Part shown: positions 10,042-53,855 of the stretch, piece after piece
How the letters are laid out: the number at the start of each line of letters is the position of its first letter
Numbering within the stretch: the stretch's first letter is position 1
Program-made: the position numbers and the translations under genes
From: Terriglobia bacterium
GTDB taxonomy: Bacteria; Acidobacteriota; Terriglobia; Bryobacterales; Bryobacteraceae
DNA length: 64,000 bases
Reading direction: 5' to 3'
Assembly: GCA_963847515.1 (NCBI GenBank)
Contig: CAWKAA010000007.1
Coordinates: 968,952-1,032,951, forward strand
Notes under the pieces: model-generated
Told to the model about the DNA's origin: nothing
What the model saw: the letters and a program-made list of their open reading frames with translations, nothing else
The model's database searches: none

Positions 10042-11133
10042 TTATTTGTTCAGCGATGCCAGCCAGTAGCCTGGACGGGTGCGTATCTTGAGGTTCGCGC
10101 GGTTGACGTCGACCACGATCTCGTGGAAACCGCCCTCTGTAGTGTTGTTCGGGCTGTAAGTGATCAGGTATTGGCTGTGGATGTCGTTGCCGACTTTCTC
10201 GATGGCCTCCTCGATCCCTTTCTGCTTGCCGAAGCTGAACTGGGTTCCGCCGGTACCCTGCGTGAAAACCTCGACGGGATTATCCACGAAGATGGCTTTT
10301 GTATCCTTGAAGATTTCCACCAACAGCGGGACGAACTGGGCGGAGGCGCCATCGCTGCCCGTTGTCTGCATAACGGTGGTGGGTGTCGCTGGAACTTGGG
10401 AAGGTATCGAGTGCATGGCGGGCGGCAGGGTGTCCGGGCGCGGGTCCGCCGGACGGGAGGTGAGTCCCGCCATCATTCTTGAAATATCCACCGCGTATAC
10501 GCTCACGTTATTCATCTGAATATCCATGAGTGCATCGCGAACCTTGCCTTCGCTCCCCTTGTCTCGAGTTTCGGAAATCATCAGAAGAATACGCCGGCGA
10601 TTGGCGGGCCGGGAGCGCAGCTTGCGCACAGATTCAATCACGGCATCGATCATGCGGCTGCTGCCGCTACCTGGGGTAATTTTCTTGAGCCCGGCTTCGA
10701 TCTTGTTGGGGTCCGAAGTGAAATCGTCTTGCACCCATCGGAAACGGTGATCGAAGGCCATCACCGCGGCTTCGCCCTGGTCTCCGGTGATTAACGGCTG
10801 AATCATCGCGCCAATTTTGGCGATCTTGGGGAGCATGCCTTCGACGTGATCGTTAGCTTGAATGGCGATAACCAGAGAGATGGGTATAAAGGTAACATCC
10901 ACGTGGATGTTCTGCTCTTTACTGTTATCCAACAGACGGAAATCCTGCGGCTGGAGGCCGCTGACATACTCGCCCTGGCGATTCAGAACGGTAACCGGCG
11001 CCATTACCACATTCACGCCGACGCGGATGGGCTGATCCGAGGCGGCTTCCTGAGCTGGTGCTTGCTGAGCGGATATTGAGGCGCCACCTGCGGCACACAG
11101 CAGCAGGGCAAGTGCAAGTCGGGTGGGTACCAT
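10042..11133 (-). CDS. VWFA-related Acidobacterial domain protein (TIGR03436-like), secreted
   Basis: Signal peptide. Pattern VNVVMAPVTVLNRQGEYVSGLQPQDFRLLDNSKEQNI followed by a VWA-like core (ILLMISETRDKGS). Confidence 0.7.
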   Translation of the reverse strand: MVPTRLALALLLCAAGGASISAQQAPAQEAASDQPIRVGVNVVMAPVTVLNRQGEYVSGLQPQDFRLLDNSKEQNIHVDVTFIPISLVIAIQANDHVEGMLPKIAKIGAMIQPLITGDQGEAAVMAFDHRFRWVQDDFTSDPNKIEAGLKKITPGSGSSRMIDAVIESVRKLRSRPANRRRILLMISETRDKGSEGKVRDALMDIQMNNVSVYAVDISRMMAGLTSRPADPRPDTLPPAMHSIPSQVPATPTTVMQTTGSDGASAQFVPLLVEIFKDTKAIFVDNPVEVFTQGTGGTQFSFGKQKGIEEAIEKVGNDIHSQYLITYSPNNTTEGGFHEIVVDVNRANLKIRTRPGYWLASLNK

Positions 11134-31098: not shown

Positions 31099-31171
31099 CT
31101 GGATATAGCTCAGACGGTAGAGCAACAGCCTGATACGCTGTCGGTCGCGGGTTCGAATCCCGCTCTCCAAC
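31099..31171 (+). other. tRNA-like element: perfect D-arm, anticodon arm (anticodon GAT, Ile-like) and T-arm but mismatched acceptor stem, no CCA
   Basis: TAGCTCAGACGGTAGAGC D-arm. Stem ACAGC/GCTGT with loop CTGATAC. T-arm GCGGGTTCGAATCCCGC. Proposed acceptor CTGGATA/TCTCCAA has 2 mismatches. Confidence 0.35.
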
Positions 31172-31439
31172 CTTGGTGCTTTAAAAAGCATCGTCCAATC
31201 ACGCAGTGAACCGGGCTCCACTCCTGCCGGCCTGATCCGGTTCTCTTCGGAGAGCTGGAAATGGAAGGGGCAGCGATCTCGAGGCCTTGCGTCTTCCCTG
31301 AAACTGCTCGACGTGCGCCGGGTGTGATGTCTGTGCCTGTGCCAGGCGAGCTCTAGGGCGGAACCGCCAAGAGGGCGCGGGGTGGAGTCCGGGGATCTGT
31401 ATTCAACCGAAGAAATAAAAAGCAAAGGAGGAAAAACCA

Positions 31440-35557: not shown

Positions 35558-36298
35558 ATGAAAACAGCGTTGTACGGGCGGATCGTCTTTGGCGCGTCGG
35601 CTGTGCTGTTCGGCGTCATCGCGCTGACGTGGTACGACTCTGACACCTGGCAAACCCTGCGTCAGATCTGGAGCCTGCCTTTTGGAACCGTCATCGGCGG
35701 GTGTCTCATGATCGTTCAAATTGCCGGTGGGATTGGGGTGCAGTACCCAAGGACCGCGCGTTCGGCGTCGATCGTTCTCGGCATCATCTATTTGTTTTTC
35801 TCCCTGGCCTGCATCCCTGGCATCATTGCCGCACCGACCATCTATGTGCATTACGGGAGCTTCTTCGAACAGTTTTCCTCACTCTGTGGTGCGATTGCCC
35901 TGTACGCTGCAACCGAGGCAAATGCAGCACGGGCCGTAGCGTTCGGCCGAGTAGCGCGCCTTGGACTCGGAGTCTGCGCGATTTCATTTACGCTGAGTCA
36001 GATACTCTATCTTCCTTTGACAGCTGACTTGGTTCCAAAGTGGATTCCGCCAAATCAGGCTTTTTGGGCGATACTCACGACGATCGCATTTGCACTCGCG
36101 GCGATTGCCATTCTCATCAATCGCCAGGCACAGCTTGCGATACGCCTGATGACCCTCATGCTGGCACTCTTTGGTGTGTTGGTTTGGGTTCCGCGCCTGA
36201 TCGCTCACCCAGAAGCCCATCTAAACTGGTCCGAATTCGGCTTGACTTTCCTCATTACAGGGGCGGTCTGGATGGTGGCTGATTTGAGGTCTTTCTGA
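35558..36298 (+). CDS. Hypothetical integral membrane protein (about 7 TM)
   Basis: Continuous hydrophobic helices, no soluble domain. Confidence 0.6.
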   Translation: MKTALYGRIVFGASAVLFGVIALTWYDSDTWQTLRQIWSLPFGTVIGGCLMIVQIAGGIGVQYPRTARSASIVLGIIYLFFSLACIPGIIAAPTIYVHYGSFFEQFSSLCGAIALYAATEANAARAVAFGRVARLGLGVCAISFTLSQILYLPLTADLVPKWIPPNQAFWAILTTIAFALAAIAILINRQAQLAIRLMTLMLALFGVLVWVPRLIAHPEAHLNWSEFGLTFLITGAVWMVADLRSF

Positions 36299-36444
36299 TT
36301 TAAGGCGGTGTTTGCACGCCGCTTAATCGTGCAACCGCCAGCGTTGTTTCCGGTTCACTTTGTATGTGGTCGGGGATACTTCCCCTACTTTTCTGCGTGC
36401 CCTCGACGCTACGCCGAGCCCCGAATTTGAAAAGTAGTTTCCGG

Positions 36445-36913
36445 TTACGCCGTGATCCTGGCGCAACTCGCTTTCTGATCGGTGATCCCGTCCGTAACGG
36501 CCACCAGCGTGTCTCCCGGCTCCAATCGCATCGCCCGCTGCTCGAACACTGTTCTAGTGCTCAAGCCAAGCACAGTCCCAGTGCTATTGAGTGTTATAGT
36601 CCTTTTCTTGTTAGCTCTAAGCAGGACTGCTCGATCGTGGCCCGCATTCACATAGTGCATTTCTCCTGTGTCAACATCGACGCGAGCGCAAAACATCGTC
36701 GCGAAGAAATTATCTGGCGCAAGCTGCCAAACCATACGGTTCAGATTGTCCATTAGCTTGCCAAGCTCGAAATCCATATGCGATTCCAACGCACGTAACG
36801 AACCCTGAACTGCGGCCATGATCGAGGCGCTCCGCAATATCGGAGGTAAACTGTGCAACCATCGACGATCGGATTTCCAGTGAAACCAGAGTAAGTGTGT
36901 TCCTGTTGTTCAT
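36445..36913 (-). pseudogene. Remnant of a PP2C/SpoIIE-type serine phosphatase (C-terminal fragment, frame-split)
   Basis: FATMFCARVDVDTGEMHYVNAGHDRAVLL...LEPGDTLVAVTDGITD matches the SpoIIE/RsbU C-terminal region. No N-terminal half. Upstream piece in another frame. Region GC is low. Confidence 0.5.
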
Positions 36914-37071
36914 ATCTGGAAGACGTTCCTCGGTGGGGTCGCGATGATGACGAATTGCGAAGATTTGTTAAGCTCGTGTATGTGAGGTGAGCCACAGAGA
37001 AATGCGCACAATAAATCCGTGTGCCCCTTTTCCCTTAATCCGTATCAGTTGCGAGATTCGAACCTCGAGGT

Positions 37072-37854
37072 CTATCTGTCAGTCGCCATAAAGCTTGAAA
37101 ATCCAAAGTCGCCTATAACGCCAGCGGCACCTTCCAGGTAATACCCGACCCCTGGATTGCCACTCGCAAATCTGTCATCGCTGAGTTGAATCTTCTGCAC
37201 GCCATTGATGTAGACCGAAAGGATCTTTCCAATCATAGTGGCCTTCACTATATCTCCATCCTTGACCCCGTATTCTGAACCTCGCGTCTCTTTCAGCATG
37301 GTGAACTTTCCCAGCGGCCCCTCCCACCTGGCGATATTGCAATAGGCCTTCGGAATTTTGGAGCACCGAAACATGACTTCGTACCCCGTGCAATTGTGTG
37401 GAGAAATGGAACTCCGCAGGCGCAACTCCACTTCCTCCCAGACCTTGCCGTCCTGGTTCGGGTTCACCGAGCGGACCGTGGCTTGGACCGTTTGATTCGG
37501 TCCCCAAGTACCCTTCAACAGGGCCGTGGAGTCGTCGTATTTCTGTGGATCTGGTCGATTCCCGCCTATTTCGGTCCCAAATGCGAAGCCGGGAGTCGTC
37601 CGGACGTCGGTCCAATCTAGGCCGTCGGCCTGGCCATTCAGCCATTTGCCGCCTTCCGAAATCGGATTCTCGGCGCGGAAAAAAGTAGTGGCGTAAGGCC
37701 CGTGCGTTCCTGTCGGAGCAGGGGCCGGCAACAAGCTCAACGAGCGCGTTGACCGAGGCCAGATCCCTGCGATGAGAAACAGTGCGATCGTGGGCAAGCC
37801 AACGATCAGTTTGTGCTTCGGTCCTTCAACATTCATAAGTAACCACTGAAGCAT
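37072..37854 (-). CDS. Hypothetical secreted protein (signal anchor, beta-rich)
   Basis: N-terminal TM LIVGLPTIALFLIAGIW. No recognisable catalytic motif. GC about 52%. Confidence 0.5.
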   Translation of the reverse strand: MLQWLLMNVEGPKHKLIVGLPTIALFLIAGIWPRSTRSLSLLPAPAPTGTHGPYATTFFRAENPISEGGKWLNGQADGLDWTDVRTTPGFAFGTEIGGNRPDPQKYDDSTALLKGTWGPNQTVQATVRSVNPNQDGKVWEEVELRLRSSISPHNCTGYEVMFRCSKIPKAYCNIARWEGPLGKFTMLKETRGSEYGVKDGDIVKATMIGKILSVYINGVQKIQLSDDRFASGNPGVGYYLEGAAGVIGDFGFSSFMATDR

Positions 37855-40407: not shown

Positions 40408-40707
40408 AGCGGTGTGAGCAGCATACACATGAGCAATGAACACGCAACTCGAATCCCGAGCGCTGGGATGGTCGATATCAAACTCGCGTGGGCGAGCAAG
40501 GCGACTGCGTAGCTGCATTAACAATGCAGAGGTAGAGTCTGTATCTCGCGAGTGGTCGCCCACTCGGAAACAATCCGCTTGGACATATTGTCGCTAACCT
40601 CCGAATGGCAGTGCACCTCTCGTTGACTGCGTGTCGGGTTGGCCCACACTGCGATTGGCATAGAGCTGTATCGGTAGGCTTCCTTTTCCGTTGGTGTGGA
40701 CTACGGG

Positions 40708-42106
40708 TCAGTCGTGGCGCAGGACCTCCATGGGATCGATTCCCAGCACTTTCATCGCTGGGACGAAACACGCTGCCATCCCCACTACGGCTAACATCGC
40801 GGCGACCGCAGTAAACGTCATCGGGTCGGTCGGACTCAACTGATATAGAATGCCGACAAGTACGCGGGTCAACCCGGCCGCTGCCACGCCTCCAACGACC
40901 AACCCCGCCATGGTAAGTCGAGCTCCTTGGCAGAGCAGCAGTAGCATCGTGTCCACCGCCTTGGCGCCGAGCGCAACCCGGATCGCAATCTCTCGTGCTC
41001 GACTGCTGGCTGCGTATGACATCACGCCATAGATGCCAGTCAGGGCCAGCAAGAGCGCCAGGACAGCGAACAAGCCAACCATTTGGAGTGCGAAACGTTG
41101 CGTCGCGACGGCTGCTGCCACCAGGTCCTCCATGGGGCGAATGTCCTGGATGCTGAGATCGTTACCCATCTGCCGGGCCACTTGGCGCGCTGCCGCGATC
41201 AGCGTGGCAGCATCCGCAGTCGCGCGCAACACAACATAGTTGCCGAAGCTGGGGTTCTGCAAAAAGGGCTGATAGAACGTCGCCTCCGTTCGTGCGTCCG
41301 TCGGACTATCCTTCACGTCCCCAACCACGCCCACGATCGTCATCGTGGTGTCGACAATGTTTAGGTCGCTAAACAAGTTGATGCGATGTCCCAGGCTGTC
41401 TTTCGCCGTGGGCCAATTCTGTAGTGCGAGAGTCTTATGGATTAATAGAACCATGGGCGCGTCAAAATGGTCCGATATCGTGAGCCAGCGGCCTGCGAGC
41501 AGCGGAACACCGATTGCTTTCAGATAGTCAGGCGAAACAAACACATAATGCGCGTGCATGCTAAGGTTTGCTGGCCTAGGCCGGCCTTCAATGCCGAACA
41601 ACGCGTTGTCATTGGCGCCAGTCCATGGAAGATTCGACCCCGCTCCGGTCGCGGTCACCCCAGGTATTTGAGCCAGGTTCTCCACGAAGTGTTCGTAAAA
41701 CGCCGTATCTCCTGGCGCCTGTCAGCTTGGGATACGAGAGGGCCGTGCTCATAGTCAGGGCGCCCTGCGGACGGAAGCCGGGATCTACCCGGCCGATTGC
41801 TGCAAAACTGCGCAATAACAATCCCGCGCCAATGAGCAACGCGAACGAGAGGGCGACTTCCGCGATCACGAATATTCCACGCGGCCGGACCGTCACTTGC
41901 CGCACTTGCGTCGACGCCGCCAAAGCCCCCGCTAGTCCGAACAGAAGGCCGGCTAGTAACGATGTGCCCGCCGTCAGCAGGACTACATGCGCATCGAGGC
42001 TGATCGATTGGAGACGCGGCACCTGTTCAGGGCCGAGAGCTACCAGCGTACGCACACCCCAATTAGCGAAGAGTAGTCCCAGCGTGCCTCCGATGGTCGC
42101 AAGCAT
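40708..42106 (-). pseudogene. ADOP-type FtsX/MacB-like permease, 5'-truncated and frameshifted
   Basis: C-terminal MacB_PCD + FtsX region (GIYGVMSYAASSRAREIAIRVALGA...SPTDP) at 40708-41685. Middle FtsX TM segment in another frame at 41609-42106. The N-terminal ~350 aa expected for ADOP proteins is absent. Confidence 0.65.
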
Positions 42107-42540
42107 TGGCGCGCGAGGCGTTTATGTCGCAGATTGCCCTGACACCCGGTTCGGAGTACCTATTCCCGAGCCCGAAACCGGCGGGGAAGAAGCCACACAT
42201 TACCAACCTGCGGAAGGTGTGGGCGGACACTCTACGCCGGGCGGGTATTCCGTATTTTTCCCTGTACGACCCACGGCACACGTTTGCCTCGAGGCTTAGC
42301 GCTGGAGGTGTGGCGGATCATTTCGTGACGCAGATGCTTCGCCAAGGGGATTCGGGGGTATTCAAGCGATACAGCCAAGCCAAACTCAACATGATGCGGG
42401 AGGCGCTCGCCAGACTGGACCGGCGAGCGAACGAGCCACGAAGGGAGTTTTGGCACAGGAAAGGCGAACTAGCCGATTTTCAGCACGGTTTTGACACAGA
42501 AGTAGCAGTAGAGGCGGCTATGGAAAAGGCGAAATGTTGA
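42106..42540 (+). pseudogene. Tyrosine recombinase/phage integrase, C-terminal catalytic fragment only
   Basis: LYDPRHTFASRLSAGGV (H-x-x-R box) and VFKRYSQ (catalytic Tyr) are present. The N-terminal core-binding domain and Arg box I are absent. Abuts the tRNA-Val 3' end. Confidence 0.7.
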
Positions 42541-42556
42541 ACCTAAACAACTTGGT

Positions 42557-42633
42557 TGGTGGGCGGTCGCGGGCTCGAACCGCGGACCTTCTGCTTGTAA
42601 GGCAGACGCTCTAACCAACTGAGCTAACCGCCC
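42557..42633 (-). tRNA. tRNA-Val (anticodon TAC)
   Basis: Reverse complement GGGCGGTTAGCTCAGTTGGTTAGAGCGTCTGCCTTACAAGCAGAAGGTCCGCGGTTCGAGCCCGCGACCGCCCACCA. Perfect cloverleaf, encoded CCA. Confidence 0.9.
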
Positions 42634-42793
42634 AAACGTGTCGATTGATTATAAAACACTTCCCAAAGAGCCTTCGCCTCTAAACTCTGTTCTTTTGAGC
42701 CAACTGTTGCAAAACTGTGTCAAAACCTCTCGGTTAGCGTCGGTGTGAGGCCGCGCAAGATGAACCGAAGCGTGATAAACAAGAGAATTCAGC

Positions 42794-52452: not shown

Positions 52453-52761
52453 TGAACCAAAATTTTCGAAGGATGCCGATCGCGGGAAACTGATCTGTAG
52501 ATAATTGCGTCCATCTTGCATCGCACCAGAAGAGAGAAGCAGGCCATCGCTAACTGTTTCAGGCCAACCTCTTCCTCCCGGCATTTTTCGCCTTCGCACA
52601 TCGGCGCTCCTGGTGCGGTGGTCTGCGCTGAGGCAGGCTTAACCAAAGTTATGACTAGTGATTTAACTTTCTTCAACGGCCAACATTAGACACTCGTAAT
52701 CCTCTTGACTATACCGAAATCTTGCGCAACAATTGTCGCGCAAGCCAAAGGAGGCGTGCCG

Positions 52762-53202
52762 ATGAGTTTTGACGCGCAATCCCACCCGAAGACTATTCTG
52801 GTGGTCGATGATGACATCTCCGTTCTTACCGTTATCAAATGCATGCTGGAGGGCAGTGAGTATAACGTGTTGCTGGCGAATAGTGCGGAAGTTGCTTTGC
52901 GCATGGCGGAACGTAAAGATCTCACGATTGACTTGATGTTAGTCGATGTGGTGATGCCCGATCTGAGCGGCCCTGACTTAGGCGAGCGCATTTTGGCCAT
53001 CCGCCCGCATCAGAAGCTGCTGTTCATGTCCGGCTTCACGGATCACGAAGTAGTGCGCGTCAAGGTGCTGGATCTTGGGCTGAAATTCCTACCCAAGCCG
53101 TTCACTCCCGATGGTCTGCTGGAAGCGGTAAAGATGGTACTAAGCGCGCCCGCGCAGATCTCCGACTTCAAGAACTTCGTGACGCTGGCGCAGGGAGGGT
53201 AG
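52762..53202 (+). CDS. Single-domain response regulator (CheY-like receiver, no output domain)
   Basis: AAGGAGG SD. ILVVDDD...D(LMLVD)...S (FMSGF)...K (LPKPF) receiver residues. Confidence 0.85.
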   Translation: MSFDAQSHPKTILVVDDDISVLTVIKCMLEGSEYNVLLANSAEVALRMAERKDLTIDLMLVDVVMPDLSGPDLGERILAIRPHQKLLFMSGFTDHEVVRVKVLDLGLKFLPKPFTPDGLLEAVKMVLSAPAQISDFKNFVTLAQGG

Positions 53203-53234
53203 CTGCTCACTGCACGGTGGCTGTCTTTATCCCT

Positions 53235-53261
53235 CCATGCCTCGCTGCTGTTGAGGCATGG
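53235..53261 (+). terminator. Candidate intrinsic terminator hairpin downstream of the receiver gene
   Basis: Perfect 9-bp inverted repeat CCATGCCTC-(9 nt)-GAGGCATGG followed by CCTTGCTTTCCC. Confidence 0.3.
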
Positions 53262-53855
53262 CCTTGCTTTCCCTGACTCGCACTGCAATAGTCAACGTCA
53301 CTTCGGCACAAGCGGTATGCGATGCCTAAACCTTGCGGCGAAAGAGATCGGCTGAGAGAAGCCCACTATCAGGCCACGCTGGAAGCGTCCGCCCTGAGTG
53401 GCACTCTACCGTCCGCGCCGTTCGGCTGGGAATTCAGCGCGGCACTCGACAAAGCAGAAGCCGCTCACCTTGCGTGCAGTGTTGCACGGCGTGCATACCA
53501 GGAACATTGCGAAGAGCACGGCTGCGAAGATGAGTTCTATGAGCGTTGCAGTCAGCGGCGAGTTGAAGCCTGGTCTCCCAGTGAAAAGCCACATCCCTGA
53601 CTGCGCCGAAATTGAGCAGTTCGCGGCAACGTTGATGCTCGTGAAAAGCTATCAGTTCTGCTTCCAGGATTTCAATAAGTCGATCACCATCACCAGAGAG
53701 CAATTCGATGACGGCACGTGGCAGGAAATCATGAGATATCTCCCAAGCCGGCGGACGAAAACCAGGCCGATAGCGCCCGCCAACCGTGATCGGAATCGTT
53801 CAATTCCGAAATAGCAATTCCCGCCCGGAACCGTGCCGAGTTGTAAACTCAAAAT

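Follow-up and report, generated by a model that had tools for sequence, protein, structure and literature searches.

Genomic islands integrated at tRNA genes and cryptic-prophage remnants are known with int-AlpA modules of the P4/CP4-57 kind, and pseudogenization of the integrase fixes such a remnant. In SSV1-type integrases, attP is located inside int and the gene is split by integration. The Islander resource (PMC4383910) catalogues tRNA-integrated genomic islands and uses a tDNA, a displaced tDNA fragment and an integrase gene as criteria.

The DNA analysed here, a 64-kb stretch of a Terriglobia genome referred to as the window, carries a tyrosine integrase fragment which, as in tRNA-integrated islands, directly adjoins the 3' terminus of a tRNA gene that is itself intact. 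In the explanation that fits best overall, and which we consider very probable, the locus is a relic, no longer functional, of a small integrative element of non-phage type that had inserted into tRNA-Val(TAC). It differs from tRNA-integrated islands in that about 450 nt of the element are left, and from the islands catalogued by Islander in that the 64 kb searched contain no displaced tRNA fragment, which places the locus outside the Islander definition. The features of the locus, with the evidence for each in brackets, are the following:

40588-40707, minus strand: 3' flank of the ADOP permease remnant, homologous to contig L087 (blastn of L087 against the window)
40708-42106, minus strand: pseudogene of an ADOP-family duplicated FtsX/MacB-type permease, codons 336-801 of 801 (TIGR03434; L087)
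42103-42108, no strand: illegitimate junction at which the 5'-truncated integrase gene (plus strand) meets the 5'-truncated ADOP gene (minus strand) head to head (limits of homology)
42106-42540, plus strand: ORF of the integrase pseudogene remnant, with the YDPRH variant and the RHTFAS...KRYSQ end (Pfam, phrog_1, tblastn)
42448-42457, 42477-42487 and 42489-42498, arm: three putative arm-type sites of the pattern TTT(n2-4)CAC(A/G) (pattern match)
42473-42556, plus strand: element-derived attL arm (natural integrase stop to tRNA)
42557-42602, no strand: presumed att core, comprising 46 nt at the tRNA 3' end (analogy with L012 and L020)
42557-42633, minus strand: intact tRNA-Val(TAC), 77 nt (ARAGORN; Rfam RF00005, 73.8 bits)

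The integrase remnant

The ORF 42106-42540 was aligned with the Pfam Phage_integrase profile (PF00589) over profile positions 90-167 of 172 and scored 24.2 bits, below the cutoff of 27.1, because only these positions remain; full-length relatives pass the same profile at 51-65 bits. The fragment is identified as a tyrosine recombinase by its match to the phrog_1 integrase profile (E=3.5e-14) and by its 71-78% identity to full-length relatives. When eight of these relatives (386-390 aa) were searched against the window with tblastn, the sole match was located at about 42106-42465, covering their residues 266-271 to 379-385 with E values of about 1e-47 to 1e-54, and the remnant is therefore a true C-terminal fragment. 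Its integrase-homologous part, 42106-42472, corresponds to about residues 270-390 of a 390-aa tyrosine integrase, or the last ~31%. In the source genome, the ORF carries the annotation of a 138-aa protein whose start is the ATG at 42124. The tblastn search with the full-length relatives detected no other integrase pieces in the 64-kb window, residues 1-269 included, and an excisionase is likewise absent from the window.

The earlier note had described a fragment that retains only the catalytic end from RHTFAS to KRYSQ, and Pfam, phrog_1, tblastn and the alignment with relatives all bear this out. In the alignment, GLR (Arg I) and DSKT (Lys) map upstream of the window's first residue and RHTFAS and KRYSQ alone are left, such that the catalytic set of a tyrosine recombinase (Arg I, Lys, His/Tyr-x-x-Arg II, His/Trp, Tyr) is incomplete. 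The near-invariant family motif YELRH reads YDPRH in the remnant, with a proline inside the motif. The N-terminal arm-binding and core-binding (SAM-like) domains are missing; relatives have Phage_int_SAM_3 at residues 77-131. The relatives resemble three-domain integrases of the lambda-Int type in matching phrog_1 and PF00589 and in the repeated arm-type motifs that flank the core, whereas the window keeps the last ~120 residues only, and the family as a whole differs from this type in having Tyr where the usual HxxR box begins (YELRH). As the first catalytic Arg, the Lys, both DNA-binding domains and the partner att site are missing, the stub is incapable of excision or recombination.

Owing to one additional C at 42436/7, the frame of the integrase tail runs past the natural stop of the family (TAG, 42470-42472) and the ORF reads through to 42540. 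The spacing of 16 bp between fragment and tRNA reported earlier is correct as a gap (42541-42556) but results from this extra C, the natural stop being 84 nt short of the tRNA. An integrase fragment beside a tRNA gene also recalls SSV1-type integrases. A partitioned integrase of the SSV type was rejected, since 451 nt separate the tRNA from the break at 42106 and the tRNA sequence lies outside the integrase frame; that full-length family members sit unbroken beside their tRNAs also counts against such splitting.

The integrase family in Acidobacteriota

The family was surveyed in 80 genomic loci comprising 1.4 Mb. It is distributed across Acidobacteriota, in different orders and at 63-78% protein identity, and most of its integrases are full length (386-393 aa), matching phrog_1 over residues 19-381 (E=4.7e-49) as well as PF00589 and Phage_int_SAM_3. 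A family of short integrases (223-250 aa), as suggested by the mostly short database matches, was rejected because the genomic loci give ORFs of 386-393 aa; the short matches are contig ends and pseudogenes, with stops, frameshifts or truncation in the upstream frames of L002, L004 and L005. The closest solved structure is a weak XerC-like match (E ~1e-3), and no specific NCBIfam model for the family was found. Among 2.9 million viral contigs (IMG/VR) there are no close relatives, the best match having 40% identity over 78 aa, and a prophage origin was rejected on this ground.

A complete tRNA gene adjoins the integrase in 58 of the 80 loci. In 48 loci the tRNA converges on the integrase about 120 nt past the ANE motif (119-121 nt, compared with 122 nt in the window), in 10 further loci it is on the integrase's own strand, and at least 12 tRNA isoacceptors are targeted. 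Intact members encode a three-domain tyrosine integrase of ~390 aa, whose gene is convergent with the tRNA and ends ~85 nt from its 3' end. The 3'-terminal 46 nt of the target tRNA travel with the element; integration thereby restores a complete tRNA gene, and a 46-nt repeat, attR, is left at the element's other boundary. Two intact elements, of 5.4 kb (L012) and 5.7 kb (L020), are bounded by exact 46-nt direct repeats of the 3' end of tRNA-Val(CAC), and that of L020 contains a methyltransferase, an RHH protein, AlpA/excisionase and int. Paludibaculum fermentans (L059) is a further example of a strain in which the element is intact. This element-supplied tRNA 3' part and the AlpA-type (AlpA/HTH_17) excisionase immediately upstream of int are points in which the intact relatives resemble tRNA-integrated islands. 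At least 11 integrase gene copies are present in one 4-Mb genome, many of them with just one half of a tRNA. In one subclade, represented in the complete genomes OZ244973.1 and CBDCKA010000002.1, the part of the target tRNA that is carried appears to be the 5' half, together with promoter-like sequence, and not the usual 3' half; direct repeats of the 5' half were not found within 10 kb in this subclade.

The tRNA gene and the attachment site

The 3' end of tRNA-Val (42557) points toward the integrase remnant, and all 77 nt of the gene are invariant across L090, L091, L237 and L238; it is intact and remains a usable integration target. By analogy with L012 and L020, its 3'-terminal 46 nt (42557-42602) would represent the att core of the window element, a segment that elements of this integrase family bring with them when they integrate. 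A second copy of this 46-nt core is absent from the 64-kb window. A direct repeat of the tRNA-Val 3' end, proposed earlier as a possible attR remnant, was searched for by means of 14-45-nt patterns, exact or with mismatches, and with a repeat search; in the 64 kb no repeat reached 14 nt when up to 2 mismatches were allowed, and blastn-short matches in the window were no better than chance.

The three arm motifs, of which that at 42448-42457 still falls in the integrase coding tail, keep the same offsets throughout the closest subclade, regardless of the tRNA target. Their pattern has a mean of 2.2 matches per locus (overlaps counted, all 42 sequences), compared with 0.02 in shuffles. Judged by this recurrence of pattern and position, they are putative binding sites of the integrase in the window element. 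The family geometry, the arm motifs, and the 46-nt repeats and excisionase of the relatives support the earlier reading of the locus as the footprint of a tRNA-targeted integrative element, and we regard the scar of such an element as well supported.

The permease pseudogene and the junction

The ADOP gene of the window is a pseudogene of a true TIGR03434 member. The profile is matched in two pieces, positions 327-474 (41609-42106; 107 bits) and 483-803 (40708-41685; 309 bits), and these scores compare with a full-length cutoff of 622.3 bits for members with two MacB_PCD+FtsX repeats; coverage is limited to positions 327-803. The stub resembles ADOP permeases in this range and differs from them in its missing 5' domains and its frameshift. 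The intact relative on L087 (P0121, 801 aa), by comparison, matches positions 1-803 at 857 bits and shares 94.9% nucleotide and 93% protein identity with the stub. Alignment with L087 places codon 336 exactly at 42106 and continues down to 40588, 120 nt beyond the ADOP stop, where L087 homology ends in a second synteny break. The loss amounts to 335 of 801 codons (42%), more than the N-terminal third given in the earlier note, and comprises the first MacB_PCD domain and the greater part of the first FtsX domain. The internal frameshift described there proved to be a 2-nt deletion between 41704 and 41703, outside any homopolymer.

The shared boundary of permease and integrase fragment at 42106 was confirmed by the limits of homology: ADOP homology to L087 stops at 42106, and integrase homology to L238 and to the full-length relatives begins at 42103-42106, with a microhomology of 1-4 nt at the junction. 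As the source is a large assembled contig, an artefact was considered, either a chimeric assembly at the junction or frameshifts due to sequencing errors. Both Logan contigs break within the tRNA (L006 stops at 42584, L001 starts at 42604), and the linkage between the left and right parts of the window across the tRNA rests solely on the deposited 2.24-Mb contig. L006, however, which was assembled independently from run ERR10755940, matches the window at 100% identity over 40435-42584, i.e. over 2150 nt that span the ADOP frameshift, the junction, the additional C and part of the tRNA (28 nt); hence neither the junction nor either indel is an error of a single assembly. Moreover, the 2-nt ADOP deletion is not in a homopolymer, and the lost gene parts are missing as DNA, not just out of frame. 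Neither gene is recoverable by single-base correction. We consider an artefact extremely improbable.

Strain variation at tRNA-Val(TAC)

The contigs used for comparison are from metagenomes of different strains. Where the identity to the right of the tRNA is about 97%, homology to the window ends at the tRNA 3' end or no more than about 70 nt beyond it. L090 (96.9% nucleotide identity) aligns to the window solely from 42557 rightward and has another integrase, likewise degenerate, at its tRNA-Val. L237 and L091 (97%) keep ~70-100 nt of an arm of the same family, followed by a kinase gene; L237 and L090, which share 99.2% identity, split exactly at the tRNA 3' end. The more distant L238 carries a 91%-identical integrase remnant with the tRNA; this remnant is cut at residue ~246 and not 270 and has a +1 frameshift of its own, and the flanks differ. 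Three strains that are 96-99% identical on one side of the tRNA are thus found in three states on the other, and L238 in a fourth. DNA that varies between strains from the tRNA 3' end onward, as looked for in islands of the Islander type, is seen both in L090 and between L237 and L090. Integrase remnants are present at tRNA-Val in L090, L091/L237 and L238; the absence of any island there in relatives would have refuted the earlier reading. Since close strains show other remnants at the same tRNA, tRNA-Val(TAC) is a hot spot at which integration and deletion recur. It constitutes a breakpoint of strain variation in this soil Terriglobia lineage.

Truncation points differ among the family remnants (~246, 270 and ~370). 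Between the window and L238, the dN/dS of the integrase sequences is 0.16 (17 synonymous, 10 non-synonymous changes), within the range of 0.03-0.17 of intact pairs; the divergence therefore predates the breakage of the genes, and each truncation is a recent, independent event. A single ancient pseudogene that erodes progressively in all lineages was rejected on the basis of this value. The low dN/dS, together with an open frame that is called as a gene (P0001), could also be taken to indicate that the 138/144-aa ORF is retained as a functional small protein, namely a domesticated integrase C-terminus. As the value equals that of intact family pairs, though, it reflects the history before truncation. 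The protein is the only member of its cluster, relatives are cut at other residues and have different frameshifts, and the tail is an out-of-frame read-through; with the proline in the conserved YELRH motif and the loss of the first catalytic Arg and Lys, we judge retention of a function to have hardly any likelihood.

Origin of the scar

In the mechanism that we favour for the relic, an element would have inserted at tRNA-Val(TAC) and supplied the 3' part of the tRNA. An illegitimate, near-blunt break-and-join would then have eliminated codons 1-269 of the integrase along with excisionase, cargo and attR, and fused the remainder of int to codon 336 of the ADOP gene on the opposite strand. Later decay of the two stubs would account for the loss of 2 nt in ADOP, the gain of 1 nt in the integrase tail and the change of YELRH to YDPRH. 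One deletion would be the simplest route; inversion, translocation or several steps account for the findings no less well. The earlier proposal of a later, large deletion that took part of the neighbouring permease holds in that the body of the element (integrase residues 1-269, excisionase, attR) is absent from the window. That one and the same deletion also cut into the permease is the most economical interpretation, though it is unproven, as in no relative does ADOP adjoin this tRNA-Val. The alignment with related genomes suggested by the earlier note yielded an intact ADOP gene (L087) and tRNA-Val sites with integrase remnants, but never ADOP beside this tRNA, and the ancestral order ADOP - (attR, island) - int - tRNA-Val was found in no relative.

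The same relic might have resulted from a rearrangement, by inversion or translocation with breakpoints in int and in an ADOP gene that was not its neighbour, or by several successive events. The left flanks of the strains that are 96-97% identical on the right side are wholly different from that of the window (kinase, ECF sigma and PSD-domain genes; in L237 a GAF-kinase), and no trace of these genes was found in the window's left 42 kb, which resembles ordinary chromosome. The second loss of L087 homology at 40588 points in the same direction, and the multiple integrase genes found in a single genome would provide substrates. On the other hand, two divergent genes that are each 5'-truncated and abut one another are the exact product of one deletion, the short microhomology argues against homologous recombination between integrase copies, and, the metagenome contigs being of different strains, the flank differences may be those strains' own events. 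We regard such a rearrangement as a serious possibility, if not the probable one.

Relatives of the neighbouring genes were used in the search for the ancestral left flank and gave no usable candidate: L087 is too short and diverges at 40588, and L088 and L089 (74-77% nucleotide identity) are non-syntenic. The neighbouring cytochrome P460 gene is widely shared and highly conserved; its best relative is only 92% identical, and none of its relatives adjoins ADOP.

A further alternative to the favoured mechanism is that the ADOP fragment was itself cargo of the island, which would then have undergone an internal deletion and would extend leftward past the stub. No attR is present within 42.5 kb and so no boundary can be placed, GC falls to 0.49-0.53 at 36.0-37.5 kb, and the cytochrome P460 gene adjoins a transposase in relatives. 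Against this, the GC around the stub matches that of its flanks, and no integration, conjugation, replication or phage genes were found in the window's left 42 kb. ADOP paralogues occur just five times in the 80 family loci, four times beyond the tRNA on the chromosomal side and once (L028) ~7 kb away on the element side of int, so that ADOP as typical island cargo is unsupported by these loci. We consider a cargo origin of the fragment quite unlikely.

Implications

By itself, the Terriglobia relic is ordinary and non-functional, a decayed integrase beside a tRNA being the textbook sign of a past island integration. The integrase family, which has some curious features, is abundant in Acidobacteriota and could help to delimit islands in these poorly studied genomes. 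We tentatively suggest that the stub might be the fossil of an undescribed, Acidobacteriota-wide group of small non-phage integrative elements with unusual properties (many targets, multiple copies, a 5'-half subclade), for which tRNA-Val(TAC) would be a strain-level hot spot that was repeatedly invaded and eroded. For annotation, pseudogene status should be assigned to the 138-aa 'protein' and to both permease ORFs.

Structure of the scar

The tRNA-Val(TAC) gene was identified with ARAGORN, with which Rfam agreed, no other RNA being detected in an Rfam scan of 38-46 kb. The locus, in which ADOP stands for acidobacterial duplicated orphan permease, comprises:

40708-41685, minus strand: ADOP ORF (TIGR03434 positions 483-803), overlapping the following one
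41609-42106, minus strand: ADOP ORF (TIGR03434 positions 327-474)
42106-42540, plus strand: integrase-remnant ORF (Pfam, phrog_1), converging on the 3' end of tRNA-Val
42557-42633, minus strand: tRNA-Val(TAC), intact, 77 nt

The integrase-remnant ORF matches the phrog_1 integrase profile (E=3.5e-14), but Pfam Phage_integrase over profile positions 90-167 of 172 only, at 24.2 bits, below the cutoff of 27.1. When eight full-length integrases were searched against the whole window with tblastn, the sole match lay at about 42106-42465, corresponding to residue 266-271 through residue 379-385 of the relatives at 71-78% identity; integrase residues 1-269 are therefore absent as DNA. This missing part comprises both DNA-binding domains (arm- and core-binding) as well as the catalytic residues Arg I (GLR) and Lys (DSKT), and the remnant itself carries YDPRH in place of the near-invariant YELRH of the family. 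A naturally short integrase, suggested by a protein-match list of 110-251 aa throughout, was rejected, as the upstream frames of three comparison contigs (L002, L004, L005) reveal such matches to be contig ends or pseudogenes. Relative to the closest remnant (locus L238), the tail contains an additional C at 42436/7, which puts the natural stop (TAG, 42470-42472) out of frame, so that the ORF extends as far as 42540. The 16-bp gap to the tRNA, as measured in the earlier note, is thus correct for the ORF end, but is a product of this read-through and not the natural spacing, which is about 85 nt in the family.

For the permease, alignment was performed with contig L087, which encodes an intact ADOP (P0121, 801 aa, 857 bits on TIGR03434). 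The window is 94.9% identical to it at the DNA level between 42106, which corresponds to codon 336 of the intact gene, and 40588. Codons 1-335 are missing, which at 42% exceeds the N-terminal third assumed previously; the frameshift assumed with it is real, and consists of a 2-nt deletion between 41704 and 41703 (intact AGATACGCCGCGTTT vs AGATACGGCGTTT in the window). Homology to ADOP stops at 42106 and that to the integrase starts at 42103-42106, so that the truncated 5' ends of the two genes meet head-to-head with a microhomology of at most 1-4 nt, a signature of illegitimate recombination. A Logan contig from an independent assembly (L006, run ERR10755940) is 100% identical to the window over 40435-42584; the junction and all indels are therefore real. 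Both Logan contigs (L006, and L001, which starts at 42604) end within tRNA-Val, and linkage across the tRNA therefore rests solely on the deposited contig, which leaves the scar unaffected, as it lies wholly inside L006. ARAGORN, tblastn, the L087 alignment and L006 together confirm an integrase C-terminal fragment next to tRNA-Val(TAC) that abuts a truncated ADOP at 42106.

No further copy of the tRNA-Val 3' end, which as attR would mark the far end of an integrated element and for which the earlier note had proposed to search, was found in the 64-kb window. Lacking catalytic Arg I, Lys, DNA-binding domains, excisionase and attR, the locus is, to judge from its sequence, functionally dead.

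The integrase family and its targets

A search of species-representative genomes returned 240 integrase relatives, of which 80 loci were retained, 79 of them from genomes or MAGs labelled Acidobacteriota (Terriglobia, Bryobacterales, Paludibaculum fermentans) and one (L020) from an uncultured MAG labelled gammaproteobacterial. In most loci the integrase gene is an ORF of 386-393 aa starting with MEESMxKxGRPR, with the architecture of a phage-type three-domain integrase (phrog_1 over residues 19-381, PF00589, Phage_int_SAM_3). A tRNA gene converges on it in 48 of the 80 loci, its 3' end 119-121 nt past a conserved ANE motif (122 nt in the window, 42435 to 42557), and a same-strand tRNA lies beside it in 10 more. 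With 12 target isoacceptors (Pro-GGG/-CGG, Val-TAC/-CAC, Asp-GTC, Arg-ACG/-CCT/-TCT/-CCG, Lys-CTT/-TTT, Ala-GGC), the family is tRNA-targeted.

Integrase and tRNA are separated by a spacer of element DNA. Members of the subclade closest to the window have TTT(n2-4)CAC(A/G) in this spacer three times, at fixed offsets irrespective of the tRNA, and the window has these motifs at matching offsets (42448, 42477, 42489). Matches average 2.2 per locus across all 42 sequences, vs 0.02 in shuffles; the motifs are putative arm-type integrase sites. Two small elements were recovered whole (L012, 5.4 kb; L020, 5.7 kb), their ends being exact 46-nt direct repeats of the tRNA-Val(CAC) 3' end. In the second, an AlpA/HTH_17 excisionase-family gene overlaps the integrase start; this element also encodes an RHH protein and a split N6-methyltransferase that has a TaqI_C domain. 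Among 2.9 million viral contigs no close relative was found (best 40% identity over 78 aa), and the family therefore represents islands or integrative elements rather than recognised prophages.

Outside the window, this abundant, multi-copy and tRNA-promiscuous family is a more interesting lead than the scar. One 4.04-Mb Terriglobia MAG chromosome (OZ244973.1) has at least 11 integrase copies (L040, L058, L060, L063, L064, L070, L071, L073, L077, L081, L086), and a contig of another MAG (CBDCKA010000002.1) has five (L036, L037, L039, L041, L065). Many of these have a tRNA 3' fragment of about 45 nt alone at the canonical position, without a full tRNA; they could represent tandem or attP-like copies, or else insertions at sites other than tRNAs. 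In one subclade (L031, L032, L034-L038, L040-L042, L050 and L056, at about 10330-10560 in each; also L017 and L018), a same-strand tRNA 5' end (Val-TAC, Arg-TCT, Arg-CCT, Lys-TTT) directly follows the integrase stop and a conserved arm, i.e. the element DNA between stop and tRNA, with a conserved promoter-like TTGAGG-17 nt-TAGGAT upstream of the tRNA 5' end. In L032, L035, L036 and L041 just the 5' half is present, up to the anticodon loop and followed by common sequence; such elements apparently bring the 5' half of their target tRNA with them, not the usual 3' half. L031, L037, L042, L050 and L056 have a second integrase, which converges on this tRNA at its 3' side.

The tRNA-Val site in related strains

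Sister strains were located by a metagenome scan with the 901-aa TPR protein that is the right-hand neighbour of the window's tRNA-Val. In L090 (96.9% nt identity), alignment with the window begins precisely at the tRNA 3' end (42557) and extends 6 kb to the right, with none to the left. On that left side lie DUF6429 and PD40 genes and another tyrosine integrase, distantly related (32% identity over 88 aa) and apparently degenerate. This integrase (L090:6900-8493), which ends 55 nt from the tRNA and adjoins the DUF6429 gene, would mark an independent second occupation of the site. L091 and L237 (96-97% to the window, 99.5% to each other) retain just about 70-100 nt of same-family arm beside the tRNA, followed by a series of genes all absent from the window, among them those for a 1031-aa GAF-Ser/Thr kinase and an ECF sigma factor; the point at which L237 and L090 (99.2% identical to each other) diverge is precisely the tRNA 3' end. 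In the more distant L238, integrase remnant, arm and tRNA are 91.4% identical to window 42103-42633 (tRNA 77/77). There the integrase is truncated at residue ~246 and has a +1 frameshift of its own, and the neighbouring genes differ on either side. Four lineages in four different states make the tRNA-Val 3' end a hot spot.

For the window and L238 remnants, 17 synonymous and 10 non-synonymous changes give a dN/dS of 0.16, within the 0.03-0.17 of intact pairs in the family. The two integrases were therefore still working genes while they diverged, and each was truncated separately and in the recent past; erosion from one ancient pseudogene is ruled out. The ADOP stub (dS 0.086, omega 0.32 vs L087) is compatible with recent inactivation.

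As to its origin, the locus had been read as a tRNA-targeted element later deleted together with part of the permease. The integration scar, a decayed example of a well-known kind of feature, is well supported, and relatives do have integrase remnants at tRNA-Val (L090, L091/L237, L238); the one-step deletion is plausible but unproven. A single deletion is the simplest account because two divergent genes, each without its 5' part, abut. The intact ADOP anticipated beside the tRNA was not encountered; no relative examined has any ADOP next to this tRNA-Val, nor was ADOP borne out as typical cargo in the family loci. L087 homology stops 120 nt beyond the ADOP stop, at 40588, relatives of the adjoining cytochrome P460 gene neighbour a DUF772 transposase and NmrA but never ADOP, and the left 42 kb of the window, ordinary metabolic and envelope genes with none from mobile elements, has nothing in common with what lies left of the tRNA in the 97%-identical strains. 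As the ancestral order was not recovered from relatives, an inversion or translocation, or successive events, could also have made the junction, which we consider possible, if somewhat doubtful.

Other observations

Adjacency of tRNA-Val and the TPR gene is limited to the closest strains (window, L090, L091/L237) and absent in more distant TPR orthologues (L144 at 92%, L092 at 83%, others). In the comparison of window 42634-42763 with L144:4437-4604 and L092 ~9970, homology began at 42747 for L144 and at 42763 for L092, both without the tRNA. A short C-terminal piece of ADOP is found in L144 instead, about 1.3 kb upstream of the TPR gene, which itself appears frameshifted. About 1.2 kb at 52519-53750 are missing from the 97%-identical L237; ORFs there are a response-regulator receiver (52705-53202) and one of 138 aa (53398-53814) that lacks a Pfam match.

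The cytochrome P460 gene (39841-40407) adjoining the ADOP stub is unusually conserved, with more than 7,900 database proteins at E<=1e-40, the top 120 being 80-94% identical and one labelled Rhodopila. In five related contigs it is close to a DUF772 (IS5-type) transposase, and it is probably horizontally mobile. GC content dips to 0.49-0.53 at 36000-37500, vs 0.57-0.62 around; an ORF there (36445-36858, minus strand, 137 aa) matches SpoIIE/PP2C profile positions 17-138 of 192 only and may be another truncated gene. The tRNA-Ile(GAT) at 31099-31172 stands alone, outside any rRNA operon in the window.
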